Of a stretch of 64,000 nucleotides of DNA, positions 11,571 to 60,043 are shown piece by piece (the first letter of the stretch is position 1; each line of letters opens with the position of its first letter). The notes under the pieces were generated by a model that worked only from the letters and a program-made list of their open reading frames with translations, ran no database searches and was not told the DNA's origin. The translations under genes and the position numbers were made by a program. The DNA is taken from the NCBI GenBank assembly GCA_030594205.1, contig JAUVFR010000005.1, forward strand, positions 2,306 through 66,305, given 5' to 3'. Source of the DNA: Methanobacteriota archaeon (GTDB lineage: Archaea > Thermoplasmatota > Thermoplasmata > RBG-16-68-12 > JAJISG01).

Positions 11571-12659
11571 ATGGAGACCCGAGTTCGGCGCATATTCGAT
11601 GAACTGGAGAATCCTCTGGACGCGGTGGTCCTCCTCAACGGGACGGAGCCGCAGGTGGACAAGACCTTCTTCTACGCTACTGGCATGCACGGGGGCATCT
11701 TCGAGGGGTGCGCCGCCGTCCTTCGTCCCGACGGTACCTTGTCAGTCCTGTCCTCCCAGCTGGAGGCCGACATCGCTCGTTCCCAAGACGTCCCCGTCGA
11801 GGTCTTCACGGGGAAGGAGGAGAAGGCAAAGGCCCTCGAACGCCTGCTGAAAGGCGTCCGCACCCTGGGCATCAACGGGAATGAACTGACATACGCCGGA
11901 TATCGTCAGGTGGTCGAGGCCAATCCCGACGCGGAAGTCCACGATGTCTCCCAGGCGATCGTGAAGGCGCGCCAGGTGAAGGATGCCGCCGAGGTCGAAA
12001 TGATCCGCGAGGCCTGCCGAATCGCGGTGGAGGCCTTCGAGGAGCTCCTGCCCTCCTTGGAGGTGGGTCGCACGGAGTCGGAGGTCGCGGCGGAGCTGAA
12101 CTATCTCATGCAGACCAAGGGAGCCTCGGGTCCGGCCTTCTCCCCGATTGTTGCCTCCGGACCCAACGCGGCCTTGCCGCACCACGCCACCGCCGACCGG
12201 CGCCTCCGCGAGGGGGACCTTCTCCTGATCGACTTCGGCGCCCGGTACCGGGGCTACGCCTCCGACGTCACCCGGACCATGGTCTTCGGGAAGCCGGACG
12301 AGAAGCAGCGGCGCATGTACGACGTCGTCCTCGAGGCCCAGCAGGCGGCCATGGACGTGATGAAGCCGGGTGCCGACGGGAAGGCCATCTACGAACTCGC
12401 CCGCGACGTGATCGACGGCACGGAATTCAAGGGACGATTCATCCACGGTCTGGGTCACACCATCGGCCTCGCCGTCCACGACGGGGCGGGGATGGGGTCC
12501 CTGCCCGGAACCACCCTCGAGGAGGGGATGGCCATGACCGTCGAGCCGGGCATCTACCTGGTGGACTACGGTGGGGTCCGTATCGAGGACGACGTGCTGG
12601 TGACCGCCGATGGGATTGAAGTCCTAACCCCCGCGACCCGTGAGTTTCTGGAACTCTAG
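11571..12659 (+). CDS. M24-family Xaa-Pro aminopeptidase/dipeptidase
   Basis: Creatinase N-domain plus pita-bread domain with metal ligands (DFGARYRGYASDVTRT, HGLGHTIGLAVHD, EEGMAMTVEPGIY). Confidence 0.85.
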   Translation: METRVRRIFDELENPLDAVVLLNGTEPQVDKTFFYATGMHGGIFEGCAAVLRPDGTLSVLSSQLEADIARSQDVPVEVFTGKEEKAKALERLLKGVRTLGINGNELTYAGYRQVVEANPDAEVHDVSQAIVKARQVKDAAEVEMIREACRIAVEAFEELLPSLEVGRTESEVAAELNYLMQTKGASGPAFSPIVASGPNAALPHHATADRRLREGDLLLIDFGARYRGYASDVTRTMVFGKPDEKQRRMYDVVLEAQQAAMDVMKPGADGKAIYELARDVIDGTEFKGRFIHGLGHTIGLAVHDGAGMGSLPGTTLEEGMAMTVEPGIYLVDYGGVRIEDDVLVTADGIEVLTPATREFLEL

Positions 12660-12923: not shown

Positions 12924-13688
12924 ATGCCCCCGTTCTCCTCCTCCGCCCGGGCCTCGGGACTCGTCGTCCTGATGTGCCTCTCGGTCCTCCTCCTCTCCTC
13001 CATCCTCCCAGAGGGAGGGGCGCCGACGTTGGTCACCCTCGAAGTGACCGGTGCGGGCACCCTTCAGATTCCCGGCGGCAATGACACCCTTGACTCGGAG
13101 CGCATGGCGACGATGTCCCTCCTCCTCTTCGGAACCTCGCTCGTGGGCCTCTACGTCGCTGCACGGTACCTGAAGCGAAGGGGGAGCGGGTTCTCCCAGG
13201 AGACCATGGGTCGAACCAAGCCGAAGTCAGAGCGCGTCATCGAACTGGAGCCGGGGGAGGCTTACCTCGTTACCCAGGGGCAGAATCGGGCCATGAAGGT
13301 CTTCACCCAGGCCCTCTCCAAGGGCCATCCGGGGCTTTGCATTACGCGCACCTACCCCGACAAGCTGAAGGAGAGCTGGGACCTGGATGGTGCCCGCGTC
13401 TTCTGGCTCACCGATGACGGGACGAGGGCCAAGGGGGCCATTCAGTCCCTCGAGGACATGGAGGCGCGGGTCCACAAGTTCCTCGAGGGCGTGGAGAAGG
13501 GGGTGATCCTCTTGGACGGCCTGGAATACCTCTTCGTCCAGTACAGCTTCACGGAGGTCATGAAGCTCCTTCAAGGGATGCGAGACGCCATGCCCACCAG
13601 CGGCGCGAGGCTCATCATTCCCGTCGACCTCCTCGCCCTGGTACGGAGGCAGAGGGCACTCCTGACCCGCGAATTCCGGCAGCTCTAG
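12924..13688 (+). CDS. DUF835-domain protein with N-terminal signal peptide/TM region
   Basis: Hydrophobic N-terminus, then a cytoplasmic domain (ELEPGEAYLV…GLCITRTYPDKL…VFWLTD…GVILLDGLEYL) typical of archaeal DUF835, which has a KaiC/RecA-like fold without a P-loop. Confidence 0.65.
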   Translation: MPPFSSSARASGLVVLMCLSVLLLSSILPEGGAPTLVTLEVTGAGTLQIPGGNDTLDSERMATMSLLLFGTSLVGLYVAARYLKRRGSGFSQETMGRTKPKSERVIELEPGEAYLVTQGQNRAMKVFTQALSKGHPGLCITRTYPDKLKESWDLDGARVFWLTDDGTRAKGAIQSLEDMEARVHKFLEGVEKGVILLDGLEYLFVQYSFTEVMKLLQGMRDAMPTSGARLIIPVDLLALVRRQRALLTREFRQL

Positions 13689-13697
13689 TCTGCGGAC

Positions 13698-14852
13698 TCA
13701 GGGCCCTTCCTTCTTCCCTTTCCGGAGAGCCATGTTCCGGTCCTTCGTCCGCTTGATGCGTCGCTCCAGATGCCCCATCACTTTGCGCATGGCCTGCGCG
13801 GCGTCCCAGTCGTAGTCGCCGGCGATGAGCAGGCCGTGTTCCGTCCCAAGGCGGGTCCGAATGGAGTACTTGGAACGGTCCCCCTGGATGCGGTGGGTGA
13901 CCACGTGGACGTTGAAGACGGTGGGCCGGGCGATGTCGCTGATTCTTCGCAGCCCCCGGCCGATGACGGCGTAGAGGGTCTCATACGTCCACCAGTCATC
14001 TTCGTCAAGGCCGGAGATCTGGACCAGGACTTCGTCCCGCCGTCGCAAAGCGGCGACCTGCTCCAGGAGGTCGGCCTGCGTGACGATCCCCGCCGGTCGC
14101 CCGTCCTCCACGACCACAACGCTCGAAATGTCCCGGTCCCGCATGAGGGCCGCCGCCTCCGCTCCGCTCCCCTCCGGGCCGATGACGATGGCCGGGGCGC
14201 TCATCACACTCCGGACCTCCACCCGCAGGGCGGTTTTCTGGCCCGACCGTTCCCCCTGCGTTGCCCGACGGGGTTTGCCTTTCGTCAGGGCTTCCACCAT
14301 GTCCTTCACCCCGACGACCCCCGTCAATCGCCCCTCCCCGTCCACCACAGGGACCGATCGTTCGTCGAGGGATCGCATGAGGTCCCGCGCCTTCCCCAGG
14401 GATTCTCCCTCCTCCATCGTTTGAGGATCTGGGGTCATGATGTCTTGGATACGGAGCTCCGCGAACTCCTCGGTGTCCGCCAGGATCCCGACGACGTCGC
14501 TGCGGGAGATGAGCCCCACGAGGCGCCCGTTCTCCACAACAGGGATGCCCCGGTAGCCGGAAGCGATGAGGTACTCCGCCATGTGGGTCAGGGGATCCGA
14601 AGGCTCCACCCGGGGAGGGCGGACGAGGATGCTGTCCACCCGGGTCGTGAGGGGCAGGTTCCTCCGCCGAAGGACGGTGTCGTAGGAGATCATTCCCAGA
14701 ACCTCTTCCCCTCGGGTCACTGGCATCTCGTGGAAGTCGTGGCGGCGCATCACCGCCAGCGCGTCAGAAAGCGTCTCCTCTGGCGCGGCCGTACGAGGGT
14801 CCGTGGACATCACATCCCGGACGCGGTATTCGTAGATGCTTCGCCGTTCCAT
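13698..14852 (-). CDS. Four-CBS-domain protein with C-terminal HPF/RaiA-like (ribosome hibernation factor) domain
   Basis: Four CBS repeats (…VRDVMSTDP…, …[10 protein letters not shown]…, etc.). The last ~100 aa ([11 protein letters not shown]…[25 protein letters not shown]…[44 protein letters not shown]) align motif-for-motif with bacterial HPF/YfiA (ITGHN…YVEEKL.KLERY…VVL…ITLHVNGG.L.AEAESDDMYAAID.A.DKLERQLRKHK). Confidence 0.65.
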
Positions 14853-14933
14853 CCCAAGCCCTCAGTGACGGGCGCGGCGACCGAGTCGGTCGGAGTCGAC
14901 ATCATCATATGGTCCTTTCCCATCAACTTTGTG

Positions 14934-15209
14934 ATGGAGGTCCGGGCCCACGTACTCTTCTACGGCCAGGTCCAGGGTGTCTACTTTCGCGACAACACCC
15001 GCCGTAAGGCGGAGGACCTCGGCGTCGTGGGATGGGTCCGGAACCTGCGGGATGGCTCCGTGGAGGCGGTCCTGGAGGGCCCTCAAGAGCCGGTGGAAGC
15101 CCTCATCGAGTGGTGCCGGACGAGCCAGCCGTACGCCCGGGTCGCGGAGGCCAAAGTCTCGTGGGACGAGTACCAAGGCTCCTTCGACACGTTTTCCGTG
15201 CGGCGCTAG
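14934..15209 (+). CDS. acyP: Acylphosphatase
   Basis: [49 protein letters not shown]… carries the acylphosphatase signatures. It is the 3' end of a long antisense ORF in the track; only this part is coding. Confidence 0.8.
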
Positions 15210-16702: not shown

Positions 16703-16776
16703 GCTTGGGGTCCCCCGGCCCTTTCCGGGCGAAGGGAGAAATACCGTCCTTCCCTCGGCGGGCCTGGGGAATCCTC

Positions 16777-17886
16777 GTGGAAAACGTGGACTATCCAGGT
16801 CGCTGGAAGCGATGCCGCGCGTTCATGGAGGCCCAAGACATCGACCTCCTGGCCCTGACCCCCGGGCCCAACATGACCTACATGACCGGATTTCTCGAGA
16901 CGCCCGGCGAACGCCTTCTGACCGCGCTCTTCCCTCGGGACGGAGAGCCCCGGATGGTGGTGCCGGCCCTGTACGAGGAACAGGTCCATCGGGAGGGGTG
17001 GATTGGTGACGTCCGTGCGTGGAAGGACGGGGACGACCAGGCGGCGTTCCTGCTGGAACAGATGTCCGACGCGGCCGGGCTGGTGAACGTGGCCCTGGAT
17101 ACCCGGATGTGGGCCCGCTTCGTTCTGATGTTCCACCGGGCCCTGCCTGGAGCCCTTCTCCAGGACGCTGAGGGCCTCATGCAGGAGCTGCGGATTGTCA
17201 AGGGCCCGGAGGAAATCTCGATCCTGCGTCGGGCCCACGAGGCCACGGACCGAGCCATGGCGGCCGTGGTGGAATCCTTGGAGGAGGGGCAAGTGGAGCG
17301 GGACGTGGCGAACACCATTCGCAACGCCCTCATGGCCGCCGGGGCCGACGCCGCTTCATTCCGCCCCATCGCCGCCTCCGGCCCCAACGGCTCGCAGCCC
17401 CACTACCGGTTCGGGGATCGTGTGCTCCGAAGAGGAGACGCCGTCGTCTTGGACTTCGGGGGCATGTTCGCCGGATACTATACCGACGTCACCCGCACCG
17501 TCTTCCTCGGCAAGGCGGACGACACGCAGCGAAAGGTGTACGAGCTCGTGAAGGAGGCCAACGAAAGGGCCGTGGACGCCGCGCGGGCGGGCACCCCCGC
17601 GGAGGAGGTGGATCGGGAGGCCCGAAGGGTCATCACCGACGGCGGCTACGGCGATCACTTCATCCATCGGACAGGCCACGGAATCGGCCTGGAGGTGCAC
17701 GAGGAGCCGTACATCGTCGAGGGCAGCAAACGACCGCTCGAGGAGGGTATGGCCTTCAGCGTCGAACCCGGTATCTATCTGCCGGACCGGTTCGGGGTGC
17801 GGATTGAGAACATCGTCCTCGTGGAGGACGGGCGGGCCCGACGCCTCGACCGATATCCCCGGGACCTGCAGGTCATCTCGTCGTAG
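16777..17886 (+). CDS. M24-family Xaa-Pro dipeptidase (second paralog)
   Basis: The same pita-bread motifs as 11571 (DFGGMFAGYYTDVTRT, HRTGHGIGLEVHE, EEGMAFSVEPGIY). GTG 16777 was chosen because the homology starts there (…RWKRCRAFMEAQDIDLLAL); the TTG at 16705 is possible. Confidence 0.8.
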   Translation: MENVDYPGRWKRCRAFMEAQDIDLLALTPGPNMTYMTGFLETPGERLLTALFPRDGEPRMVVPALYEEQVHREGWIGDVRAWKDGDDQAAFLLEQMSDAAGLVNVALDTRMWARFVLMFHRALPGALLQDAEGLMQELRIVKGPEEISILRRAHEATDRAMAAVVESLEEGQVERDVANTIRNALMAAGADAASFRPIAASGPNGSQPHYRFGDRVLRRGDAVVLDFGGMFAGYYTDVTRTVFLGKADDTQRKVYELVKEANERAVDAARAGTPAEEVDREARRVITDGGYGDHFIHRTGHGIGLEVHEEPYIVEGSKRPLEEGMAFSVEPGIYLPDRFGVRIENIVLVEDGRARRLDRYPRDLQVISS

Positions 17887-18811: not shown

Positions 18812-19735
18812 TCAACCTTCGTGGTATCGCCGGATCCGACGGGCCGCCCGATCCGCCAGGTGCAGAGGTTCGGGAATCCGGGTGCGGCAGAGGTGCTGGA
18901 CGAACCGGAGGGCCGTGAGATCGCTGATCCGATGGCCGGGAGAGACGTAGATGGGCTTGCCCGTCCCGGGTCGAAACGCATGTCCCACGACCTCCCCGTT
19001 CGCCCGTACCGGAGTGGCCTCCCCCGGCGCCAGGATTTCCCGATCCAGCCGACCCATCAGGAGGCTTTTCGCCACCCCGATGGTGGGTCGATCGAGCTTG
19101 AGGCCCACATGGCATGCCACGCCGAACCGGTTTGGATGGAGGGTCCCGTTTCCGTCCACCAAGAGCAAGGCGGGTGGACCCTCGAAGCGCGCGTAACAGC
19201 CGGCCACCGGGTCGAACTCACGATAGGCCAGGTAGGTCGAGATGTAGGGGAAGTCCACGGACGTCGTGAGGCCAATCTCTTCCCGGACCTCCAGGGTCTC
19301 CCAATCGAGGCCGACGGCGGCGGCGTACGCCACATCACCTCGATATGAGACGTCGAATCCCGCCACGTTGTCCGGTTCTTGGAAGCGGTCTTTCAACACG
19401 ACCTGGGAGGCGAGGACGCGTTGCTCTCGACGCAGGGCGTCCAAGGGCCGATCCGTGCGAAAGTCCTGGAAGAGAATTCGATGAAAGTCTCGGAGCGCGC
19501 CGCCGCGAACCTCGACCCCTTCCTCATGGAGGCGAGAGGCGGCCTCCCCAAAGGCCAGCGTACCGTCGGCCCGCACCACACGGTGCCATCCCGGAGGCCG
19601 ATTCCTGCGAAGGAGTCGGAAGACAGGCACGGCGGCGCGGGCGTCTCCCAGGGCCTCCGCCAAGCCGCCGAACGTGGTGACGCGTCCAGCTTCCACTTGG
19701 GCCAGCAACTTCTCAACTTCTTGGCGAAACCGCAC
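18812..19735 (-). CDS. nfi: Alkyltransferase-like (ATL) domain fused to endonuclease V
   Basis: N-terminal ~100 aa have the AGT C-domain fold with PGWHRVVRADG (Trp in place of the PCHR cysteine, as in ATL proteins). The C-terminal 200 aa carry EndoV motifs (DVSYRGD.AYAAAV, LLLVDGNGTLHPNRFGVACHVG.KLDRPTIGVAKSLL). Confidence 0.8.
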   Translation of the reverse strand: MRFRQEVEKLLAQVEAGRVTTFGGLAEALGDARAAVPVFRLLRRNRPPGWHRVVRADGTLAFGEAASRLHEEGVEVRGGALRDFHRILFQDFRTDRPLDALRREQRVLASQVVLKDRFQEPDNVAGFDVSYRGDVAYAAAVGLDWETLEVREEIGLTTSVDFPYISTYLAYREFDPVAGCYARFEGPPALLLVDGNGTLHPNRFGVACHVGLKLDRPTIGVAKSLLMGRLDREILAPGEATPVRANGEVVGHAFRPGTGKPIYVSPGHRISDLTALRFVQHLCRTRIPEPLHLADRAARRIRRYHEG

Positions 19736-24245: not shown

Positions 24246-25298
24246 TTGATGCAGCGTGTTTCCACCGGGATTGAAGGCCTAGACGCCATGCTCCACGGCG
24301 GCTTGGTTCCCGGTCGGGCCTATGTGCTCACCGGTCCGTCCGGCTCCGGGAAGAGCATCTTGGGCATGCACTTCCTCCTTGAGGGCATCCGGAACGGCGA
24401 GAGCGTCATCCTGGTGTCGGTCGACGAGCCCCCGAACGAGATCAAGGCGAACATGGCCGACTTCGGGTGGAGCCTCGACCGCCTCCGCATTCTGGACGCG
24501 ACTCCCGACATCCGGGCCCATTCCAAGTCCAAGTCCATCATCGACGTCGGGACCACCCTCGACGTCCGCGACATGGAGCAGATCTCCAAAATGCGAAAGA
24601 GCCAGGCACGCATCATGGAGGTCTCCGTCCACTCGATCCAAAAGATGCTCAAGCAGGAGTTCACGGAGCACTTCACGCTCACGGGCAAGCGGTACACGCG
24701 TGTGGTTATCGACTCCATGACCAGCCTGAAGCTCTTCGGCATGCGGGGGGAGGACAACAGCATCCTCATCCAATCCTTCATGCGCTTCCTCTCCGAGCTG
24801 GAGGCGACCATCGTCATCACGACGGACCTCCCCTCCCGCGAGATTCTGGAGACAGAATTCCACCTCGCGCGCGGCGAAGTCCGTCTGCACAAGTGGTACG
24901 AGTCCGGCATGGTGCGGCGTGCGGTCTCCGTGGAGAAGCTCCGGGGATCGTCCTTCGACGATTGCTATCGCCCCATGATCATCGGGGACCAGGGCCTCTT
25001 CGTCCAGGCGGACGCGCAGGTGGCCCTCCATGGACAGCGAACCGACGGCGTTGTCGAGGACTTCATCGAGGACATCCAGACCGAGGAACTCTTCGAGGCC
25101 CTTGAGGAAGTCCTCCGGCTTTGGGAACGGTGCGAGGCCGAGAAACTCAACATCAACAACCTGCGCCCCCGGATCTACCGGGCCTTCACCCATTGGCAGA
25201 TGGGTCTGCGCGAGGAGGCCCTCCAGCAGGCCCTGCTCCTCTTGGAACAGCTGCGGAGTAGGCGGCGGAACCCGTCTCCGCAGGTCGTCGCGAGGTAG
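24246..25298 (+). CDS. KaiC-like RecA-superfamily ATPase (single domain, ~100-aa C-terminal extension)
   Basis: TGIEGLDAMLHGGLVPGRAYVLTGPSGSGKS (Walker A), RVVIDSMTSL (Walker B), KaiC/RadA fold. Confidence 0.8.
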   Translation: MMQRVSTGIEGLDAMLHGGLVPGRAYVLTGPSGSGKSILGMHFLLEGIRNGESVILVSVDEPPNEIKANMADFGWSLDRLRILDATPDIRAHSKSKSIIDVGTTLDVRDMEQISKMRKSQARIMEVSVHSIQKMLKQEFTEHFTLTGKRYTRVVIDSMTSLKLFGMRGEDNSILIQSFMRFLSELEATIVITTDLPSREILETEFHLARGEVRLHKWYESGMVRRAVSVEKLRGSSFDDCYRPMIIGDQGLFVQADAQVALHGQRTDGVVEDFIEDIQTEELFEALEEVLRLWERCEAEKLNINNLRPRIYRAFTHWQMGLREEALQQALLLLEQLRSRRRNPSPQVVAR

Positions 25299-25301
25299 AC
25301 C

Positions 25302-26069
25302 ATGCCAGGGGAGCGCGTCCGGACGGGGATCGAGGGACTTGACCAGATGCTGAATGGCGGCCTCATCCCCCACCGACCCTACATCGTCTCCGGTCCACTC
25401 GGCAGCGGGAAGTCGACGCTCTGCATGCAGTTCCTCCTCCAAGGGCTGAAAGAAGGGCAGCACGGACTTTTCGTGGCGCTGGAGGAACCGCCCAACGAGA
25501 TCCGTTACAATATGGAGTCGTACGGCTGGAAGGTAGGGGACGTCGAGATCTTGGACGCCAACTCCGATATCCGGCGGTTCGAGCCCAACCCCACCCTAGA
25601 GATTTCCTCCGAGATCGCCCCCGTCGCGATGAAGAACCTCCCGGCCAAGATCCGCAAGACCCCCGACGGCACCTCGCGAGAGATCACCGTTCACTCCCTC
25701 CAACAGTCCCTCAAGAACCTGTTCGCCAACAAGCAGTACGACCGCGTGGTCATCGACAGCGTCACGGCCCTCCGGCAGTTCTGCATGCGCAACTTTGAGG
25801 AGAACGTCTCCACCCAGTCCTTCATGCGGTTCCTTTCGGAGTCCGAGAAGACCGCCCTCCTGACCGTGGAGACGCCCTCGAACGGGACCTCCTCCAAGCT
25901 GGAGACCTTCCTGGCCCGGGGCGAGATCCGCCTCTACAAGTTTCGCCAGGACATCGGGATCAAGCGCTTCATCTCCATCGAGAAGTTCAAGGGCTCGAGC
26001 CACATGGAGTCCATCCTCCCCATGGAACTCAACGAGAACGGCCTCGCCGTCCACGCCCGGGCATCCTAG
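25302..26069 (+). CDS. KaiC-like RecA-superfamily ATPase (tandem paralog)
   Basis: TGIEGLDQMLNGGLIPHRPYIVSGPLGSGKS, RVVIDSVTAL. Colinear similarity to the upstream gene, including the same internal insertion. Confidence 0.8.
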   Translation: MPGERVRTGIEGLDQMLNGGLIPHRPYIVSGPLGSGKSTLCMQFLLQGLKEGQHGLFVALEEPPNEIRYNMESYGWKVGDVEILDANSDIRRFEPNPTLEISSEIAPVAMKNLPAKIRKTPDGTSREITVHSLQQSLKNLFANKQYDRVVIDSVTALRQFCMRNFEENVSTQSFMRFLSESEKTALLTVETPSNGTSSKLETFLARGEIRLYKFRQDIGIKRFISIEKFKGSSHMESILPMELNENGLAVHARAS

Positions 26070-28901: not shown

Positions 28902-29618
28902 ATGCAACCAGGCCAGATGGCGTACGATCGTGCCATTACCGTTTTCTCGCCCGATGGGCGACTCTTCCAAGTCGAGTACGCGCGGGTCGCCGTCACACGC
29001 GGCGCCACCACGGCCGGTGTCAAATTCAAGAACGGCGTGGTCTTGATGGCCGGGAAGGGCCTCAGTAGCCGCCTGATGGAGGTGGACGCCATCGAGAAGA
29101 TCTTTGAGATCGACCGGCACATCGGGTGCGCCACCTCGGGCCTCGTGGCCGACGCCCGGGTGCTGGTGGACTACGCTCGCATCGCGGCGCAGGTGAATAA
29201 GGTCACGTACAAAGAGCCCATCTCGGTGGACCTCTTGGTCAAGCGGGTGTCCGATTACAAGCAGAACTACACCCAGTACGGCGGAGTCCGCCCCTTCGGG
29301 ACCGCCCTCCTGATCGGAGGCGCGGACGACCAGGGCATTCACCTTTACGAGACGGACCCGAGCGGCGCCATGGTCTCCTACAAGGCGGGGAGCATCGGCT
29401 CCGGAAGCACCACGGTCCGCGAGATGTTCGAGGAGAAGTTCGCGGAGGACATGGACCAAGACGCCGCCGTCCTCCTGGGATTCGAGGCACTCCAGAAGGC
29501 CTCCGAGGAGGCGCTCCAAGCAGACACCCTCGAGGTCGGAATCGTCGAAGCGGGAGAGCGGTTCGTCCGCCTCACTGCCGAGGAGATCCAGGCGTACCTG
29601 GGCCAGCTGGAGACCTAA
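28902..29618 (+). CDS. psmA: Proteasome alpha subunit
   Basis: YDRAITVFSPDGRLFQVEYARVAV is the canonical alpha-subunit N-terminus. Confidence 0.95.
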   Translation: MQPGQMAYDRAITVFSPDGRLFQVEYARVAVTRGATTAGVKFKNGVVLMAGKGLSSRLMEVDAIEKIFEIDRHIGCATSGLVADARVLVDYARIAAQVNKVTYKEPISVDLLVKRVSDYKQNYTQYGGVRPFGTALLIGGADDQGIHLYETDPSGAMVSYKAGSIGSGSTTVREMFEEKFAEDMDQDAAVLLGFEALQKASEEALQADTLEVGIVEAGERFVRLTAEEIQAYLGQLET

Positions 29619-29628
29619 GGGGCGAAGC

Positions 29629-30354
29629 ATGCCCTGGGACCTCCGGACTTCTCGGAAGGACGAGATTACCAAGGACATGGTGATCGCCCGCCTCGACCGG
29701 GGCGGGGAGACCTTCGAAATTCTCGTGCGGCCCGACGCCGTCGAGACCCTTCGAGCGGGGGAAGAGATTAACCTTGTCGACGAGCTGGCCAGCGATGCGA
29801 TCTTCCGGGATGTGAAGAAAGGACTCCGGGCCTCGGAGGAGAGGATGGCTGAGATCTTCGGCACGGCCGATTCCCTCCAGGTAGCCACGGTCATCGTCCG
29901 CGAGGGCGACATCGCCCTCACGACAGAGCAGCGGCGGGCCCTGCTCGAGACCAAACGAAAGCAGATCGTCGCCTACATTGCGTCCAATGCCATCAATCCC
30001 CAGACGGGGACCCCCCACCCGCCTCAGCGCATCGAGAACGCCATGGAGGAGGCCGGGGTCCACGTGGACCCGTTCCGCCGCGTGGAGGAACAGGTGGATC
30101 CGACGCTGGACGCCCTCCGTCCCCTCCTTCCCCTCAGCGTGGAGAAAACGAAGTTCGCCATCAAGCTCCTTCCGGGCGACACGGGGAAGGCCTACGGGGA
30201 GGTCCGGTCCTACGGTACGATCCTCGAGGAGGAGTGGCAACCCGACGGCTCCTGGATCGGGGTCGTAGAGGTGGCCGCCGGGTTCCAGGGCGAATTCCTG
30301 GATCGCCTGAACGAGCGGACCCACGGAAACGTGGAGACGAAGATTCTTAAGTGA
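29629..30354 (+). CDS. sdo1: Ribosome maturation protein SBDS (Sdo1)
   Basis: MVIARLDRGGETFEILVRPD…FGTADSLQVATVIVREGDIALTTEQRR matches the SBDS FYSH domain. Conserved superoperon position. Confidence 0.85.
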   Translation: MPWDLRTSRKDEITKDMVIARLDRGGETFEILVRPDAVETLRAGEEINLVDELASDAIFRDVKKGLRASEERMAEIFGTADSLQVATVIVREGDIALTTEQRRALLETKRKQIVAYIASNAINPQTGTPHPPQRIENAMEEAGVHVDPFRRVEEQVDPTLDALRPLLPLSVEKTKFAIKLLPGDTGKAYGEVRSYGTILEEEWQPDGSWIGVVEVAAGFQGEFLDRLNERTHGNVETKILK

Positions 30355-30392
30355 CCTGAGCCCTACGAGCCTCGCAAGGCAAGTGAGGTGGA

Positions 30393-31070
30393 ATGAGTAG
30401 TCCCAAACGGGCAGTTGTCGTTCCGGGAGATGTTCTCGACGGCGAAGGCCTGAAGCCCGGTGTCGGCACGTTCAGCGAAGGTGGCCAGATTTACGCCTCC
30501 CTCCTAGGCATCAAGCGGGAGCGAGACGGCTACGTCGACGTCGTTCCTGTTGGCGGGCGTTACATCCCCCGCGAGGGGGACCTGGTCATCGGCAAGGTCA
30601 TCGACCTTGGGCCCTCCCATTGGTTGGTCGACCTCAACGGTCCGCACCCTTCCCCGCTCCGTGTGAACGAGGTTCCCTGGAAGGTGGACTTCGGCGACAC
30701 GGCCCGCTATCTGGACGTGGAAGACGCGGTCCTGGTGAAGATCATCAGCCTGGATGAGACGAAACGGGTAATCATCACCATGAAGGATCGGTCCACCCGG
30801 AAGCTCACGCAGGGACGTATCGTGGAGATCTCCCACGCCAGGGTCCCCCGGGTGATCGGCAATCAGGGGAGCATGATCAGCCTGATTGAGGACTTTACCG
30901 ACACGCGGATGTTCGTGGGCCAGAACGGTCGAATCTGGATTGACGGAGAGATCGATGACGTCGTCCACGCCGTGACGGCCATCGAGATGATCGAGTCCGA
31001 CGCGCACGTGCACGGGCTCACCGACGCTGTCCGGGACTTTCTCGAAACCACCTATGGCAAGGCCGAATAA
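30393..31070 (+). CDS. rrp4: Exosome complex RNA-binding protein Rrp4 (S1 + KH)
   Basis: VVPGDVL…GDLVIGKVIDLGPSHWLVDL (S1), KH domain GNQGSMISLIE. Confidence 0.9.
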   Translation: MSSPKRAVVVPGDVLDGEGLKPGVGTFSEGGQIYASLLGIKRERDGYVDVVPVGGRYIPREGDLVIGKVIDLGPSHWLVDLNGPHPSPLRVNEVPWKVDFGDTARYLDVEDAVLVKIISLDETKRVIITMKDRSTRKLTQGRIVEISHARVPRVIGNQGSMISLIEDFTDTRMFVGQNGRIWIDGEIDDVVHAVTAIEMIESDAHVHGLTDAVRDFLETTYGKAE

Positions 31071-31076
31071 ACCTAG

Positions 31077-31871
31077 GTGAGCACAATGGCGGAAACGCCC
31101 AAGTTAATCGATTCCAAAGGAAAGCGGCTGGACGGCCGCAAGGCGAACGAACTGCGCCCGCTGACCATCGAGGCGGGCACCCTGAAGCGCGCGGACGGAA
31201 GCGCCTATCTCGAGTGGGGGAACAACAAGGTCATGGCCGCGGTCTACGGGCCACGGGAGTGTCACCCCCGCCACATGGCACACCCCGCCCGGGCCTTGGT
31301 CCGGGTGACCTACAACATGGCCTCGTTCTCCGTGGGCGATCGTAAGCGCCCCGGCCCCGATCGGCGCTCCACGGAGATCTCCAAGGTGACCAGCGAGGCG
31401 TTTGCCTCCGTGGTCTTCCTGGAGCAGTTCCCGCGCTCGAGCATCGATGTGTTCGTAGAGATCCTGCAGGCAGACGCCGGAACCCGGGTCGCCGCACTCA
31501 CGGCGGTGGCCGTTGCCCTGGCGGATGCCGGGATTCCCATGAAGAGCTTGTTGGCAGGGGTCGCCTTCGGGAAGATCGGCGGCACAGTCGTATTGGATCT
31601 CGGAAAGGACGAGGACAACTACGGCGAAGCGGACGTCCCCCTTGCCATCATCCCCCGGACGGAGGAGATTGTCCTCCTGCAAATGGATGGCGACCTCACG
31701 GCCAAGGAATTCCAGAAGGGGATGAAGATGGCGATCGCTGCGGCCAAGGAGATCTACGAGGTGCAGAAGGACGCCCTCAAGCGTCGGTACGCCGTGTCCG
31801 TGGAAGCATTGGAGGCGGAGGAAGGTGCCGAAGAAGAGCTCAAAGAAGAGACCGTCGAGGAGGAGGCGTAG
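31077..31871 (+). CDS. rrp41: Exosome complex exonuclease Rrp41 (RNase PH-like)
   Basis: [45 protein letters not shown]. Confidence 0.9.
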
Positions 31872-32651
31872 ATGGTCGAAGTCGTGCACGAGCTGACGCG
31901 AACCCACATCCAGCGGCTGGCCGAGATGGGCAAACGCATCGACGGGCGTGACCTCGAGGAGCATCGGCCTCTGACGGTGGAGAAGGGCTACATCGAGTCG
32001 GCCGAGGGGAGTGCCCGGGTGCACCTGGGCGCCACGGACCTTCTGGTGGGCGTTAAGATGGAGCTGGGCTCACCCTACGCTGACCGGCCCGAGTCCGGTG
32101 TCCTGATTGTTGTCGCGGAACTGCGTCCCGGCGCGAGCCCGACCTTCGAGCTTGGCCCCCCGAAGCCGCCGGCCATCGAGCTGGCACGGGTGGTGGATCG
32201 GGGCATCCGATCGACCGACACGGTGGACGTATCCAAGCTTGGGATCGAGCCCGGGGAGAAGGTCTGGCTCCTCTTCGTCGACATCCACATCCTGGACTAC
32301 GAGGGAAATCTCTTCGACGCCGGAAACTACGCGGCCTTGGCCGCCCTAATGAACACGACCATCCCGAACGCCACAAAACTGGGGGAGGGGAAAGACGCCC
32401 CCCTGGAGGTGAAGCATCAGCCCATCTCCGTCACTGCCGCCAAGATTGGGGAGACCATCTTCATCGATCCCTCCCTGGAAGAGGAGCGCATTGCCGATGC
32501 CCGCCTGACCGTCGTCACCGACGAGAAGGGCCACATCCGGGCCATGCAGAAAGGCTTAACTGGCAGCTTCACCGTGGATGAGGTTAACCAGGTCGTCGCC
32601 CTTTCCCAGAAGATTGGGAAGGAGATTCGGAAGACGATCGCGGAGGCCTAG
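31872..32651 (+). CDS. rrp42: Exosome complex subunit Rrp42 (RNase PH-like, inactive)
   Basis: RIDGRDLEEHRPLTVEKGYIESAEGSARVHLGATDLLVGVK. Confidence 0.9.
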   Translation: MVEVVHELTRTHIQRLAEMGKRIDGRDLEEHRPLTVEKGYIESAEGSARVHLGATDLLVGVKMELGSPYADRPESGVLIVVAELRPGASPTFELGPPKPPAIELARVVDRGIRSTDTVDVSKLGIEPGEKVWLLFVDIHILDYEGNLFDAGNYAALAALMNTTIPNATKLGEGKDAPLEVKHQPISVTAAKIGETIFIDPSLEEERIADARLTVVTDEKGHIRAMQKGLTGSFTVDEVNQVVALSQKIGKEIRKTIAEA

Positions 32652-36049: not shown

Positions 36050-37050
36050 CTCGACCCTTCGCCCCCTCCCTCGCGGTTCGCGGCCTTCAATCGGTCAATG
36101 GATCCCACGGGACGGGGATCCACCCCCCGCAGGACCGCCAGGTACACGCTCACCAGGTCCCCAAGTAGGACGAGCTCCAACAGACCGGTCACGAAGTCCT
36201 CGCTGAGGAGCGGGACCGAGGTGACGGGCACCCGTTCCTCCAACAGCGCGAGGGTGTGCTGGAAGCGGGCGTGGATGGCGCTGTCGGAGGGTGGCATCAG
36301 CAAGACCGGGGCAAATCGTTCCGGATTCGATCCCTCAAGCCAGCCCACGATCTCGTTGTGGTTCGCCTCGGGGAGGATGCTGTGCCACGCGAGGGTCTTT
36401 GCGTTCTCGTTCAGCTGGGTCTGCCACCTTCGAGCCACCCCGGCATAGGGCGGGGGGCCGTAGATGATGGGTACCTTTCCCTCCAAGGCCGTGGCGATGG
36501 CCTTCGCCGGGTTCTCCTCCGTCGGGACGGCCGGAACCCATTCCTCTCGGATCCGGCCCAGGTCCGTAAGGGCACCCGGGAGCGCTTTTTCGAGTCGGGT
36601 GGAGGAGCGGGCCAGCAGGGTGAGCAGGGGTGCCAGAAGGTAGCCCAGAGCCGCCCGGGGCACGAAGCCGGGAGGGACGAAGACGTGGGGCACCCCCTGG
36701 GTCGAGGATGTCTCGGCAAGCTCTCCGCCCGATCCGACCGTCAGGCAGGAGAGGTCCCGCCCCAGCGCCTGTCGAAAGGCCGAGAGGGTCTCCCAGGTGT
36801 TCCCCGAATAGCTGATGGCAATCAGGAGATCCTCCTGGCCCACATAGGGGGGGATGCGGGGGGTCCGCGTGACTTGGACTTCCACCCCCCCGTACCACCT
36901 CCCCAGCGCGTGAGCAAGATCCCCTGCGATGGCCGACCCCCCCATGCCCACGACGAAAACGCGCCCCGAGGGCGGATGGGTCCAGGCAGCGTCCCTGACC
37001 CCTGCGAGTCCCTCCTCGATCTGCTCCGGGAGGGAGGAAAAGGTCCCCAT
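36031..37050 (-). CDS. Bifunctional phosphoglucose/phosphomannose isomerase (SIS domain, archaeal PGI/PMI)
   Basis: SIS motifs VFVVGMGGSAIAGDL…LLIAISYSGNTWETL. Start placed at MGTFSSLPEQIEE (37050) so that it does not overlap ribB. Its 3' end overlaps the 3' end of tRNA-Ser on the opposite strand. Confidence 0.7.
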   Translation of the reverse strand: MGTFSSLPEQIEEGLAGVRDAAWTHPPSGRVFVVGMGGSAIAGDLAHALGRWYGGVEVQVTRTPRIPPYVGQEDLLIAISYSGNTWETLSAFRQALGRDLSCLTVGSGGELAETSSTQGVPHVFVPPGFVPRAALGYLLAPLLTLLARSSTRLEKALPGALTDLGRIREEWVPAVPTEENPAKAIATALEGKVPIIYGPPPYAGVARRWQTQLNENAKTLAWHSILPEANHNEIVGWLEGSNPERFAPVLLMPPSDSAIHARFQHTLALLEERVPVTSVPLLSEDFVTGLLELVLLGDLVSVYLAVLRGVDPRPVGSIDRLKAANREGGGEGSSAEGEI

Positions 37051-37173
37051 CAGTTCGCTGGGGTCGATCCGGGACAGACGATCGGGGTCGTCCAGCACAC
37101 GGCGCGATGGGCCGAGGCGTTGAAAGGGTTGCGGGAGAGGAGGAACAGGTTTTTTGGTAATTACAAAAATCTT

Positions 37174-37935
37174 ATGAGAGGTCCGCGGGTTCCCTATACG
37201 ATGCGGGCCGCGGTGCGGGGGGCCCTGAGAGCGCTCCAAGGGGGAACCCCGATCTTACTCTACGATGCCGACGGTCGAGAGGAGGAGACGGACCTCGTTC
37301 TCCCCTCCCAGTTCGTTACCTCCGAATCAATCCGCCTCATGCGCCAAGAGGCCGGCGGCTTGATCTGCACGACCTTCCCGACCCCGGTGGCGAGACGACT
37401 GGGGCTGCCGCTCATGGAGGACGCCCTGACCATACTCAAGGAGGACTTCCCGGTGATCGAGGGGCTCCTCCGGCACCGGCCTCCCTACGATGTCCGGTCG
37501 GCTTTCAGCCTGACGGTGAACCACCAGGCGACCCGGACGGGGATTACGGACCGGGATCGGGCCCTGACGGTGGGCGCGTTGGCCGAGGTGTGTCGCAATA
37601 CCCTCGCCTCAGAGGACGGCCTGGCACGGGAAGCGTTCATGCAGGAGTTCCGTGCCCCCGGACACGTCCACCTTCTCATCGCGGCCGAGCCACTCCTGCG
37701 GGAGCGCCGTGGCCATACCGAGCTCTCCACAGCTCTTCTCCTGATGGCTGAGCTCCTCCCCACGGCCACTCTCTGTGAGATGCTGGCGGACGGCGGCGGA
37801 GCGCTCTCCAGGGCGGAGGCAAACAAATATGCGACAGCCCGACATCTTCCCTTTGTCGAGGGGAGCGACGTCCTCGAGGCTTGGGGAGCATGGTCCGGGT
37901 CATGGCGACGGGAGTTTTCGACATCCTCCACATAG
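37174..37935 (+). CDS. ribB: 3,4-dihydroxy-2-butanone 4-phosphate synthase
   Basis: LLYDADGREEETDLVLPSQFVTSESIRLMRQEAGGLICT is the DHBP synthase signature. An AT-rich near-palindrome (37151-37169) lies just upstream. Confidence 0.8.
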   Translation: MRGPRVPYTMRAAVRGALRALQGGTPILLYDADGREEETDLVLPSQFVTSESIRLMRQEAGGLICTTFPTPVARRLGLPLMEDALTILKEDFPVIEGLLRHRPPYDVRSAFSLTVNHQATRTGITDRDRALTVGALAEVCRNTLASEDGLAREAFMQEFRAPGHVHLLIAAEPLLRERRGHTELSTALLLMAELLPTATLCEMLADGGGALSRAEANKYATARHLPFVEGSDVLEAWGAWSGSWRREFSTSST

Positions 37936-45972: not shown

Positions 45973-47520
45973 TCAGTGTTTGAAGACGCGGACCCCGGTA
46001 AAGGCCATTGCCATGCCGTGCTCGTCGGTGGCCTCAATCACCTCGGCGTCTCGAATGGATCCGCCGGCCTGCAGGATGGCTGCGACGCCGCCCTTCGCCG
46101 CCTCGTCGACCCCGTCCCGGAACGGGAAGAAGGCGTCGCTGGCCAAGACGCTCCCCTGAGCTTCCTTCCCTGCCTTCCGAACCGCGAGGATGACCGCATC
46201 CACCCGACTGGCCTGCCCCCCGCCGAGCCCCACGGTCCGGTCTCCTTTCGCGAGGACGATGGCGTTGGACTTGAGGCTGCCGAGGACGCGATGGGCGAAG
46301 AGCATCCCGCGAATTTGGTCCTGGGTGGGAGGGACGCGGCTGACGACCTTCAGGTCCGCGGGCTCCAACGGGACGTGTGCGCGGGCCTGCACCAGCATGC
46401 CTCCCCGGATGCCCCAGGTTTGAATGGCGGGTTCCCAGGTGAGGGGCCGTCCCGTCCGCAGGGCGCGAAGCTTTCGCTTCTCCCGGAGTACCTTGAGCGC
46501 GTCGGCCGTGTAATCCGGCGCGATCACTCCTTCCACGAAGTGCGGCCTCAAGGCCTCGGCCGTCCTCTGGTCGATCGGGCGGTTGAAGCCGATCACGCAG
46601 CCGTAGGCCGATTTAGGATCCGTCTCCCGCGCCAGGCGGTACGCCTCGGGCAACGTGTCGGCGGTCGCCACCCCGCAGGCGTCCGTATGCTTGATGATGG
46701 CGGCGGTGGGCCCCTCGAACTTCATGGCGAGTTCGAGCGCGGCGTTGAGGTCGAGGATGTTGTTGAACGAGAGGTCACGACCGAAGAGCTCCTCCGAGGT
46801 GGCCACGGAGGTCCCGGTGAAGTTCGGGTCGCGGTAGAAGGCGGCCTGTTGGTAGGGGTTCTCCCCATAGCGGAGTTCCCAGGCGTGCTCGAACGCGATT
46901 CGTAGGTCCTTGGGGAAGGCGTTCGGGTTGTCCCCGACGAGACGGTTGTACAGGGAGGCCTCGTACCGGCTCGTGAGGGCCAATGCCTCCTCGGCCAGGG
47001 TCCGCCGGGTGTCCTCCGGGACGGATCCCTTCCCCGTCTCGAGCGCTTCGATGAAGCCGGCATACTGGGCGGGGTTGGTGAGGACGCTGACGTAGCGGAA
47101 GTTCTTCGCGGCCGCTCGGATGAGGGTCACGCCGCCGATGTCCATGGAGGCCAGGAGATCCGCCTCCCCAGACGCCTCGGGCGGGTCCAGGGGATAGAGG
47201 TTCACGGCCACGACGTCGATGGGAGCGAGTCCGCGTGCTTCCAGATCCTCACGATCGTCGGCCTCATCGCGTCGGGCCAGGATGCCCGCCAGGAGGGCGG
47301 GATGGAGGGTCTTGACCCGGCCTCCCAACATCTCCTCCCACCCGGTGACGTCGGCGGCTCGCCGGACCGGGATGCCCCGTTCGGCCAGGTGCAAGGCAGT
47401 CCCCCCGGAGGCGACGAGCGAATGGTCCCACGCGAGAAGTGCCTGGGCTAGCTCCTGCAATCCTTCTTTGTTGGAGGCGCTCAGGAGGGCTGTTCGGGAC
47501 CGTACCATCCCTATTACCAA
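45973..47520 (-). CDS. purH: Bifunctional AICAR transformylase / IMP cyclohydrolase
   Basis: MGS-like N-domain (ALLSASNKEGL…ASGGTA), AICARFT domain. Confidence 0.9.
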   Translation of the reverse strand: MVIGMVRSRTALLSASNKEGLQELAQALLAWDHSLVASGGTALHLAERGIPVRRAADVTGWEEMLGGRVKTLHPALLAGILARRDEADDREDLEARGLAPIDVVAVNLYPLDPPEASGEADLLASMDIGGVTLIRAAAKNFRYVSVLTNPAQYAGFIEALETGKGSVPEDTRRTLAEEALALTSRYEASLYNRLVGDNPNAFPKDLRIAFEHAWELRYGENPYQQAAFYRDPNFTGTSVATSEELFGRDLSFNNILDLNAALELAMKFEGPTAAIIKHTDACGVATADTLPEAYRLARETDPKSAYGCVIGFNRPIDQRTAEALRPHFVEGVIAPDYTADALKVLREKRKLRALRTGRPLTWEPAIQTWGIRGGMLVQARAHVPLEPADLKVVSRVPPTQDQIRGMLFAHRVLGSLKSNAIVLAKGDRTVGLGGGQASRVDAVILAVRKAGKEAQGSVLASDAFFPFRDGVDEAAKGGVAAILQAGGSIRDAEVIEATDEHGMAMAFTGVRVFKH

Positions 47521-50699: not shown

Positions 50700-51467
50700 T
50701 CAGCCCCCTCGACGCCGCCTTCGCAGGTAGGCGCCCACGAAGAGCGCCACGACGAAGACCGCGATGGCGCCGAGGATGATAAAGAGGGGGTTGATGGGCT
50801 CGGCTTCGATCGTGAACACAGCCCGGAGGACGACGTCGCCAGTGGCCGGGTCGATGATGCCGTCATCGCGGAGGTCCACCCGGACTTCCAGGGTATGGGT
50901 CCCGACACCCAGATCCACGGGCAGGTAGGAGAAGCTCACCGACTTCGTCTCGCCAGGCATCAGGCTGTCGATCTCCGTCTCCGCCACCTGCTGCTCGTTG
51001 ATGAAGAGGGCGACTGGGACGTTCCGGACCTCGATGGAGCCCGTATTTCGCACCTGGGCGGTGATCTCCAAGGGGACCAGAACCCGGATCTGTTTCGTGC
51101 CGGTGCCGAGGGCAAAGTCGCCCCCCTTGGTCGAATTGCCCTCCACCACCAATGTGACGAACTGGTCGGCGAAGGGCATCGTGACGTTGAACGCGAACGT
51201 GGAGTTCACGGACGAGAGGAAGAGGGGGTCGTCCTCCAAGGGGGCAGCGCCTGCCAGGTCCGGTCCCCTGAGGAAGGCCTGGATGGACCAGGTTCCGTTG
51301 TTCTCCCCCGGTCCGCCGGCCACCGTGGCCGTCATCTCCACGGTGGCGCCCGTCGCCAGGTCGTCAGGCCCCGCAACGAACACAGCCACGGATTCCTGGG
51401 CCTGCGTGGGGAGAACCGGAAGAAGCAGGAGCGCGAGGGCCAGCAGGGGGAGGAGTCTCGCGCTCAT
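50700..51467 (-). CDS. Secreted surface protein with CARDB-like beta-sandwich domains and C-terminal TM anchor plus poly-Arg tail
   Basis: N-terminal signal peptide MSARLLPLLALALLLLPVLPTQAQ. NxS/T sequons. C-terminal …LFIILGAIAVFVVALFVGAYLRRRRRGG. Its start overlaps the aglB stop by 4 nt, so it is co-transcribed. Confidence 0.6.
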   Translation of the reverse strand: MSARLLPLLALALLLLPVLPTQAQESVAVFVAGPDDLATGATVEMTATVAGGPGENNGTWSIQAFLRGPDLAGAAPLEDDPLFLSSVNSTFAFNVTMPFADQFVTLVVEGNSTKGGDFALGTGTKQIRVLVPLEITAQVRNTGSIEVRNVPVALFINEQQVAETEIDSLMPGETKSVSFSYLPVDLGVGTHTLEVRVDLRDDGIIDPATGDVVLRAVFTIEAEPINPLFIILGAIAVFVVALFVGAYLRRRRRGG

Positions 51468-58926: not shown

Positions 58927-59385
58927 TTACTGCAGCGTTCCCGATGCCAGGACGCCATTTGCGTCAATCAGCTGGTAGGTCGAGCCCGCCGGGTAGGCTA
59001 ACACGTCGAGCAGGATCCTGTCTCCAGCCGCGAGGGCGCTTCCGGTCGTGATCGGCGAGTATGTTTCGCCGACCCCGTCGAGAGTGGCTAGCGTGGTAGC
59101 GGGGAACATAGCCGCCCCGCCCGCGTCAGCGATCGCCAACGAGACCGTGAGGTTGGCCTTCCCTGCGGGAACGTCCGCAAAGATAAGCACCCAGTTCAGC
59201 CCGTTGGAGCTCTGGCTTACGGAGACACCAATGGCGTCAGGCGTCGCTCCAGGACCGGAGACCAGCCCGGATACCATCACATACAAGACGGCAGCCAGGA
59301 CGACGGTGATCGCCACCATGAGGATGGTTGCGATGACCGGCGATACGGCCTTCCGATCCTTTCGGATCGCCCCAATTGTTCTCAA
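58927..59385 (-). CDS. Archaeal type IV pilin-like protein (class III signal peptide)
   Basis: MRTIGAIRKDRKAVSPVIATILMVAITVVLAAVLYV has a prepilin-peptidase (PibD) processing-site context plus the hydrophobic pilin N-domain. TTG start. Confidence 0.7.
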   Translation of the reverse strand: MRTIGAIRKDRKAVSPVIATILMVAITVVLAAVLYVMVSGLVSGPGATPDAIGVSVSQSSNGLNWVLIFADVPAGKANLTVSLAIADAGGAAMFPATTLATLDGVGETYSPITTGSALAAGDRILLDVLAYPAGSTYQLIDANGVLASGTLQ

Positions 59386-59473: not shown

Positions 59474-60043
59474 TCAAGGCCCTTCGAAACGGACCACGTC
59501 GTCGGTCACGAGATTGAGGATGTTGGCGATCTCCTCGGAGGCGTACTCCTCCATGGAGAAGATGAATGTGTAGGCACCCCGCGCCCGCAGATGGTTCGTG
59601 AGCATGAGGAGGAACTCCGAGAGGACCCGGGGGCTGTTGTGGATTGCGAGGGAGTTGATGGAGTCGAGAACGACGACGGCTTCCGCGCCCCCCAGCTTCC
59701 GCAGGAGGAATTCCACCTTCAGGAGGACCGTTTCCAGCATGGTGGGGCTCTCGACGTACACCGCACGGTCGTCCCGCTCGCTTGCGCCCATGGTCATCCG
59801 GGAGACGCAATCCACGAAACGGGTGCGCGTGAGGTCCACCTCGAGGGTGGTGAGGGCCCCGATGATGGATTTGGAAGGGATCGTGGCCGTGACATAAACG
59901 GCATCGAGCTTCTTTTGCGGGGCGAAGACGTCCAAGATCCCCTGCACGGCATCGAAGTAGTGCTCCGCCGTCATCTCCAGGGCGATGGCCGAGGCGGGAG
60001 GGATCTCCAGGAGCTTTTGCACGCCGGTGGCCGTCGCCTCCAT
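59474..60043 (-). CDS. KaiC/RecA-fold protein lacking Walker A (degenerate, non-ATPase paralog)
   Basis: …AVVVLDSINSLAIHN…FLLMLTNHLRARGAYTFIFSMEE… reproduces the RecA/KaiC core after Walker B, but the N-terminus has no GxxxxGK[ST]. Its start codon abuts the stop of the upstream KaiC gene. Confidence 0.55.
   Translation of the reverse strand: MEATATGVQKLLEIPPASAIALEMTAEHYFDAVQGILDVFAPQKKLDAVYVTATIPSKSIIGALTTLEVDLTRTRFVDCVSRMTMGASERDDRAVYVESPTMLETVLLKVEFLLRKLGGAEAVVVLDSINSLAIHNSPRVLSEFLLMLTNHLRARGAYTFIFSMEEYASEEIANILNLVTDDVVRFEGP

Follow-up and report, generated by a model that had tools for sequence, protein, structure and literature searches.

A CBS-HPF Fusion Gene on a Thermoplasmata Contig

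This analysis concerns one gene in a 64,000-nucleotide stretch of DNA (hereafter the window) from a Thermoplasmata archaeon (GenBank GCA_030594205.1, contig JAUVFR010000005.1, positions 2,306 to 66,305 of the forward strand). The window has a GC content of ~65%, and its archaeal markers include TBP, TFB and an exosome operon. The gene encodes a protein in which four CBS domains precede a C-terminal domain resembling hibernation promoting factor (HPF) and RaiA, and it is taken here, with a probability of roughly 90%, to be the Thermoplasmata ortholog of the archaeal ribosome hibernation factor HibA/AHA. For brevity it is referred to as hibA. The features assigned to it are given below; the residue limits of all four CBS domains are to be read as "about," and the boundaries of CBS1 and CBS2 are approximate.

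13698..14852, minus strand: probable hibA/AHA ortholog, complete coding sequence, 384 amino acids (aa) plus the stop codon at 13698-13700
14661..14825, minus strand: CBS1, residues ~10-64; G53 invariant, T59 at G53+6, without the canonical ribose-binding Asp (Pfam, AlphaFold2 secondary structure, alignment)
14478..14639, minus strand: CBS2, residues ~72-125; motif G113-L-I-S-R-S-D119 (Pfam, alignment, AlphaFold2)
14286..14456, minus strand: CBS3, residues ~133-189; motif G178-V-V-G-V-K-D184 (Pfam, alignment, AlphaFold2)
14223..14285, minus strand: extended basic CBS3 loop, residues ~190-210; equivalent of the "PTC loop" of HibA and "loop 3" of AHA
14049..14222, minus strand: CBS4, residues ~211-268; motif G255-I-V-T-Q-A-D261, with G255 and D261 invariant (strongest Pfam CBS stretch, residues 213-266)
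13701..14030, minus strand: C-terminal HPF/RaiA-like domain, ~110 aa (PF02482, matches of relatives, AlphaFold2, Foldseek, profile search, hhalign)

The open reading frame (ORF) begins at the first ATG downstream of an in-frame stop, and the GC content at its three codon positions (0.70, 0.45, and 0.83) is the same as that of the other genes of the window. A gene call based naively on third-position GC and length prefers a longer antisense ORF (13770..15209, plus strand, 479 aa) that overlaps nearly all of hibA and reads in frame into the acylphosphatase gene at 14934..15209. This antisense frame was rejected as a true gene on account of its mirrored codon GC (0.83, 0.45, and 0.70), its Pro/Gly/His-rich composition and its sharing of a frame with the acylphosphatase gene by chance. 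The coding strand is the minus strand and the hibA ORF is real.

Homology to HibA and AHA

HibA came to light when stressed ribosomes of Pyrococcus abyssi were imaged by cryo-electron microscopy (cryo-EM; Madru et al., Nat Commun 2026, PMC13324472, with a preprint from October 2025), and its ortholog in Haloferax volcanii was described independently as AHA (Souza et al., bioRxiv 2026, PMC12934967). Both were identified as archaeal ribosome hibernation factors by cryo-EM and gene deletion (PMC13324472, PMC12934967). HibA comprises four CBS domains (residues 1-269) and, at its C-terminus, an HPF/RaiA-like domain (270-392). It occurs in 47% of archaeal genomes, spread over all major lineages, and is represented in complex with the ribosome by PDB entries 9SR9-9SRF and 9T7H according to the data statement; Thermoplasmata genomes were included in the database of that study (PMC13324472 and its supplement).

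The best PDB match of the window protein was P. abyssi HibA (9sr9_H, 111 bits, E = 4.7e-31), with a co-linear alignment of residues 24-377 against 19-379 running through CBS1-4, the loop and the HPF domain. By BLASTP the two proteins are 27% identical across 359 residues (E = 1e-32). When the CBS module was searched alone (residues 1-269), HibA was again the best match (95 bits, E = 4.6e-26), followed by Dri (64 bits), 9l96_a (64 bits), PH1780 (60 bits) and SriA (60 bits), with MJ1225 at 64 bits or below. Four features of HibA/AHA were tested here and found in the window protein, namely four CBS domains, the HPF fold, the CBS3 loop and homology over the full length. A CBS-HPF fusion in an archaeon, as proposed by the initial annotation of this DNA, is therefore supported by a co-linear, full-length homolog. 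Its premise that HPF-family proteins are generally bacterial or plastid is out of date, the HibA/AHA fusion being widespread in Archaea (PMC13324472, PMC12934967). As the fusion family was already published as HibA/AHA in 2025-2026, together with genome surveys, gene deletions and structures, the gene is a routine member of it and the idea is not novel.

The gene, its domain architecture and fold, the homology to HibA and the conservation of the fusion were computed here, with ribosome binding, hibernation and nucleotide binding drawn from the homologs; by analogy with these, the window protein would be expected to bind the ribosome and adenylates, to act in hibernation and to protect ribosomes in stationary phase.

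A second solved structure also matches the window protein (E = 1.4e-20). This is PDB chain 9l96_a (entries 9l96, 9l98, 9l9c, and 9l9v), a 406-aa acidic "CBS domain-containing protein" with a layout of four CBS domains and an HPF-like domain. A literature search for PDB 9L96, 9L98, 9L9C, and 9L9V did not find a paper describing it, and the chain may be a haloarchaeal homolog of HibA/AHA whose structure was solved independently.

The C-Terminal HPF/RaiA-Like Domain

PF02482 (Ribosomal_S30AE), which has a gathering cut-off of 23.7 bits, scored 17.6 bits with the complete protein; a scan restricted to the last 115 residues (~270-384) raised this to 20.8 bits (E = 6.5e-4). In the PF02482 alignment 72 residues of the domain correspond to 65 Pfam positions. 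The NCBIfam model TIGR00741 (HPF/YfiA) gave 18.2 bits against a cut-off of 40.9. Taken by themselves, these scores provide a lead. From 45 full-length homologs that were gathered, 28 were aligned and the C-terminal domains of 19 diverse members were excised. PF02482 was the one family to recur, matching 18 of these 19 domains (best E = 3.1e-6). Of the Pfam check suggested by the initial annotation, the CBS part was answered positively, while the HPF part failed at the cut-off for the protein itself and held at the level of the family.

Searched singly against the PDB with phmmer, the C-terminal domain gave E-values near 1 only. The profile of the 19 excised domains, searched against all PDB sequences, found the C-terminal domain of 9sr9_H first (E = 0.0018) and then more than 12 distinct bacterial HPF, RaiA and YfiA chains (E = 0.015-0.6), and hhalign, comparing the C-terminal profile with HibA's C-terminal domain, gave a probability of 87.5%. 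Matches to the MIT domain of VPS4B/SKD1, interleaved in the PDB searches, were dismissed as chance, being local to 22 residues (HVVKYEAQGDKAKQSIRAK) and covering no domain.

The sequence evidence for the C-terminal domain alone is weak, and structure prediction was decisive. AlphaFold2, run on the alignment of the excised domains, returned a model with a mean predicted local distance difference test score (pLDDT) of 90.1, in which a strand (domain residues 7-11) and a helix (18-36) are followed by three strands (41-52, 58-68, and 71-79) and a last helix (82-111). In a Foldseek search of the PDB with this model, ranks 1-35 were all HPF, RaiA, protein Y, plastid pY, RafH or MPY (E = 2.4e-6 to 2.4e-3, probability 1.00, TM-score ~0.5-0.7), with unrelated folds only below them. 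The HPF/RaiA-like character of the ~100-aa domain, which the initial annotation had put forward from its motifs, is confirmed by this comparison. The motif-by-motif correspondence to HPF/YfiA is visible in the HMMER alignment to Haemophilus influenzae HI0257, a member of the YfiA family, in which the stretches that are paired include VHVVTH, ASIGTPLGNLLAS and DDMYKAINEVEEKLERQL. The predicted basic nature of the last helix and tail was likewise found (residues 351-384, with 12 Lys and Arg vs. 3 Asp and Glu). Neither a lack of PF02482 signal nor a fold unlike HPF was encountered, since the model resembles HPF in its fold and relatives in the family do match PF02482.

The C-terminal domain is homologous to HPF at the level of superfamily and fold and is not a canonical member of PF02482. 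Homologs of the window protein are annotated publicly merely as "CBS domain-containing protein"; because PF02482 misses the HPF domain at its curated threshold, proteins of the HibA type are systematically under-annotated.

The CBS Module and Its Predicted Adenylate Site

Pfam identifies four CBS stretches in the window protein (E = 2e-48), in agreement with the initial annotation, and the full-length AlphaFold2 model has four beta-alpha-beta-beta-alpha units in this part (pLDDT 87). In CBS domains generally, the Asp of the motif G-h-h-[S/T]-x-x-D, which serves nucleotide binding, is known as a ribose-binding residue. In the alignment this Asp is retained in CBS2 (D119), CBS3 (D184) and CBS4 (D261) and is absent from CBS1 (T59), and both G178..D184 and G255..D261 are conserved in the family.

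The adenylate site of HibA and AHA lies at the CBS3/CBS4 interface (PMC13324472, PMC12934967). The CBS module of HibA binds AMP, ADP, and ATP with Kd values of 12, 65, and 113 uM, respectively (PMC13324472), and AHA was observed to carry two AMP molecules at the CBS3/CBS4 junction (PMC12934967). By analogy, the CBS3/CBS4 Bateman module of the window protein probably binds adenylates with a preference for AMP; because Gly181 replaces a Thr of HibA in the CBS3 nucleotide motif, its ligand preference could differ from that of HibA.

When the full-length model was searched with Foldseek, the CBS tetrad matched ribosome-bound SriA first (9znf_4, E = 7.8e-21) and Dri third, in a structure library dated 2026-04-08 with no HibA entry among its matches. 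SSO3205, MJ1225 and many AMPK-gamma chains were also among the fold matches of the CBS half, and CBS-tetrad matches reached E = 1e-21. The fold relationships published for AHA (SriA, Dri, and AMPK-gamma) are thus reproduced by the full-length model of the window protein.

CBS3 of HibA (residues 190-207) and of AHA (loop 3) has an extension that enters the peptidyl-transferase centre (PTC; PMC13324472, PMC12934967). The extended CBS3 loop is also present in the window protein, where it aligns with KPRFKAQYGELAGEK of HibA (residues 190-207) and carries seven Lys and Arg vs. one Asp or Glu. The loop is disordered in the full-length model, where residues 193-207 form the sole segment with a pLDDT below 50 (87.2 overall), and the loop consensus P..R....GE..GEK is kept across the Thermoplasmata family in the alignment of 28 members.

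Comparison with Known Hibernation Systems

The window protein has the same order and size of parts as HibA of P. abyssi (PAB0961) and T. barophilus (TERMP_00697), with four CBS domains and then the HPF/RaiA domain in 384 aa compared to 392. The extended basic CBS3 loop is at the same position, and the nucleotide-motif Asp is found in CBS3 and CBS4 of both. The proteins differ in the ribose-binding Asp of CBS2 (D119), which is absent from P. abyssi HibA, and in G181 of CBS3, where HibA has Thr. They also differ in their hosts, a high-GC, mesophile-type Thermoplasmata metagenome-assembled genome (MAG) in the one case and a hyperthermophile in the other. Compared by its published description, AHA of H. 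volcanii (HVO_2384) has the same two modules, with a loop 3 that enters the PTC, AMP bound at the CBS3/CBS4 junction and a CBS tetrad that is AMPK-gamma-like, as in the full-length model obtained here.

With bacterial and plastid HPF, RaiA (YfiA) and pY, the C-terminal domain shares its fold. It also corresponds to them in motifs: it begins with I-S-G, has matching central strands, opens a helix with D-x-x-x-A and ends in a basic helix. It differs from bacterial HPF in scoring below threshold, in being longer and in being fused behind a CBS tetrad of 269 aa with nothing after it. For HibA/AHA, two archaeal-specific insertions in the HPF domain relative to bacterial HPF have been published. Bacterial HPF is either a standalone protein of ~95-115 aa or a long HPF with a C-terminal dimerization domain, and neither form fits the window protein.

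The CBS modules of two other archaeal systems are the closest folds to the N-terminal half of the window protein. Dri of Pyrobaculum calidifontis (PDB 9E6Q/9E7F) is a CBS-tetrad hibernation factor with a second tetrad on the small subunit and no HPF domain, and matches the window protein with 59-64 bits in the CBS motifs only. SriA-D/ARC of Methanosarcina acetivorans and Methanolobus (PDB 9ZNF, 9ZNG, and 9ZNI) are standalone CBS tetrads of ~270-340 aa without HPF and match with 51-60 bits. Membership of Dri was ruled out by the single tetrad and the HPF domain of the window protein, and membership of SriA-D/ARC by the additional HPF domain. The HhpR (CM-3) family of CBS transcription regulators (NF053603) was also rejected, the score being 57 bits compared to a cut-off of 520.

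Weighing of the Alternatives

Several points weigh against the identification of this gene as a hibA ortholog. Its 27% identity to characterized HibA is low, the protein itself lies under the curated cut-offs of both PF02482 and TIGR00741, and the sequence and profile E-values of its C-terminal domain against HPFs of the PDB are weak (0.0018-0.6). The change to Gly181 affects the CBS3 nucleotide motif, the source lineage is known solely from uncultured MAGs, and for HibA itself neither AMP nor ATP clearly changed ribosome binding in vitro (PMC13324472). The sub-threshold PF02482 score could be explained if the protein were a generic CBS-tetrad regulator, for example an AMPK-gamma-like sensor or an HhpR/CM-3-type transcription regulator, whose extension is only superficially HPF-like and does not bind the ribosome. 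The NCBIfam match to HhpR (E = 1.7e-15) and the strong fold matches of AMPK-gamma chains to the CBS part would agree with this. However, the HhpR score falls far under the cut-off of that family, the fold search with the C-terminal domain returned exclusively HPF/RaiA for 35 ranks, the CBS module alone favors HibA by more than 30 bits, and the PTC loop is conserved, and a regulator of this kind is considered very unlikely. The chance is slimmer still that a true HibA homolog has been repurposed in this lineage toward a non-ribosomal partner or a ligand other than AMP/ATP. The low identity, the Thr-to-Gly change and the divergent pairing with an acylphosphatase gene in 23 of 45 loci can be read in this way, as can the recovery of DNA replication and recombination proteins with HibA in pull-downs (PMC13324472), but the ribosome-facing features (HPF fold, basic C-terminal helix and basic PTC loop) are all conserved, and the acylphosphatase gene moves with TatD and TBP as a syntenic block that is lost elsewhere, which fits inheritance.

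The top Foldseek rank of SriA and the third rank of Dri with the full-length model are what would be expected if the gene belonged to one of the other CBS hibernation systems, the two-tetrad Dri or the standalone Sri/ARC, instead of to HibA. Given that neither system has the one tetrad plus HPF domain found here, and that HibA scores 95-111 bits in sequence against ~60 for SriA and Dri, this is thought to be highly improbable. The possibility that an assembly or frame error merged adjacent CBS and small HPF-like genes, or that the antisense ORF chosen by the heuristic is the real gene, is close to negligible, as an unbroken fusion of the same length occurs in the 28 aligned relatives and the 45 loci from independent assemblies, and the codon signature, composition and frame of the antisense ORF are those of a mirror image of hibA running into the acylphosphatase gene. 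An orthologous relationship to HibA/AHA is therefore preferred.

Proposed Mechanism

Going by the cryo-EM structures of its homologs HibA (P. abyssi) and AHA (H. volcanii), the window protein would place its HPF domain in the mRNA/tRNA channel of the 30S subunit, at the decoding centre and in the A and P sites, in the manner of bacterial HPF. The disc formed by the four CBS domains would dock on the 50S subunit and cover its tRNA sites (A, P, and E), while the basic CBS3 loop would reach into the PTC. In this manner a single polypeptide might span both subunits, block translation, and keep idle 70S ribosomes intact and protected during starvation or stress. Adenylate bound at CBS3/CBS4 may tune the engagement of the factor with the ribosome or its departure from it. 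The proposal of the initial annotation that nucleotide or energy sensing controls ribosome silencing is a hypothesis even for the characterized HibA and AHA.

The architecture shows that the HPF hibernation module is common to Bacteria and Archaea, and it places an AMPK-gamma-related, adenylate-binding CBS module on the ribosome (PMC13324472, PMC12934967). The contribution of the window to this is modest, namely one clear-cut case in a high-GC Thermoplasmata lineage known from uncultured members. That the fusion was correctly inferred from sequence alone makes it a useful calibration point.

Distribution and Genomic Neighborhood

In a genome scan limited to a single genome for each species, a CBS-HPF fusion of the same length was encoded at 45 loci, all in Thermoplasmata, Methanomassiliicoccales-type and related MAGs, and the fusion is present in the related archaeal genomes that the initial annotation had suggested surveying. 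The closest ortholog, from Thermoplasmata archaeon SCS3bin.52, is 94% identical. No second ORF with a CBS module or HPF domain was found in the 64-kb window with phmmer and family hidden Markov models, which fits the mutual exclusion reported for HibA and standalone CBS-module factors (PMC13324472).

The neighbors of hibA are housekeeping genes unrelated to it, encoding two M24 prolidase-like peptidases, a DUF835 protein, an acylphosphatase, TatD, TBP, PanE and an MGMT-EndoV fusion. The two M24 genes (11571-12659 and 16705-17886, both plus strand) encode paralogous Xaa-Pro peptidases (Creatinase_N + Peptidase_M24) and flank the hibA locus. The DUF835 gene (12924-13688) is convergent with hibA across a gap of 9 bp. 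On the other side of hibA lie the following:

14853..14933, no strand: divergent intergenic spacer between hibA and acyP, 81 bp
14934-15209, plus strand: acylphosphatase gene (acyP), divergent from hibA

The spacer contains one AT-rich element, CCATATGATGATGTCGAC (14895-14912), conserved over 10 loci, which is a candidate for a TATA region shared by hibA and acyP. A Shine-Dalgarno-like GAGGG motif is found ~10 nt upstream of the hibA ATG. Going by motif and position, the spacer would serve as a promoter region for the two genes.

The acyP-hibA-TatD-TBP block persists at 20-23 of the 45 loci, with HibA identities as low as ~36-44%, and the divergent pairing of hibA and acyP is kept in 23. The block is lost in the loci of Methanomethylophilaceae and Methanomassiliicoccaceae. 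As it travels as a block and is lost in other clades, the arrangement is read as inherited gene order rather than functional coupling, and a functional operon was rejected, the synteny being kept as a block within one clade only. Apart from the under-annotation of the HPF domain, the acyP pairing and the CBS-site substitutions, both specific to the clade, are the remaining oddities of the gene. It could be supposed that hibA is co-regulated with acyP in this Thermoplasmata clade, across the shared spacer with its one conserved element, and that, together with Gly181 of CBS3 and the extra ribose-binding Asp of CBS2, hibernation is wired there to acyl-phosphate or energy-charge metabolism. This is considered unlikely; if true, such wiring would differ from anything described for HibA/AHA of Thermococcales or haloarchaea.

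Other Genes of the Window

An aSBDS gene (29629-30354, plus strand) with SBDS_N, domain II and C domains is located in an exosome superoperon (28902-32651) that includes the genes for proteasome alpha, SBDS, Rrp4, Rrp41 and Rrp42. Its presence in the window is expected, because aSBDS is to our knowledge universal in Archaea. Idle ribosomes of P. abyssi were found to carry the protein as the other factor beside HibA, and it may represent a parallel route of hibernation (PMC13324472). The gene for PurH (AICARFT/IMPCHase; 45973-47520, minus strand) adjoins purN-like formyltransferase, FolD and PurD genes. In M. acetivorans PurH promotes 50S dimerization with aEF2 (noted in PMC13324472), and nothing suggests that the PurH of the window has a role beyond purine biosynthesis.

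An ORF of 2151 aa (51464-57919, minus strand) begins with an STT3/AglB-like oligosaccharyltransferase domain, after which come SdrD_B, CarboxypepD_reg and TTR-like repeats; a gene for a CARDB-domain protein (50700-51467, minus strand) lies downstream of the ORF. In the ORF at 18812-19735 (minus strand), the DNA-binding domain of O6-methylguanine-DNA methyltransferase (residues 3-63) is fused to endonuclease V (residues 108-296); Ferroplasma is known to have a bifunctional AGT-EndoV protein. Four genes for KaiC-like ATPases occur as two tandem pairs (24246-26069, plus strand; 59474-60793, minus strand), and one of these sites adjoins an archaeal type IV pilin gene (58927-59385). Lastly, a 559-aa ORF (36256-37935, plus strand) matches DHBP synthase (RibB) in residues 323-541 only and has no Pfam match in its N-terminal ~320 residues, and it may have either an over-called start codon or an unrecognized N-terminal domain.

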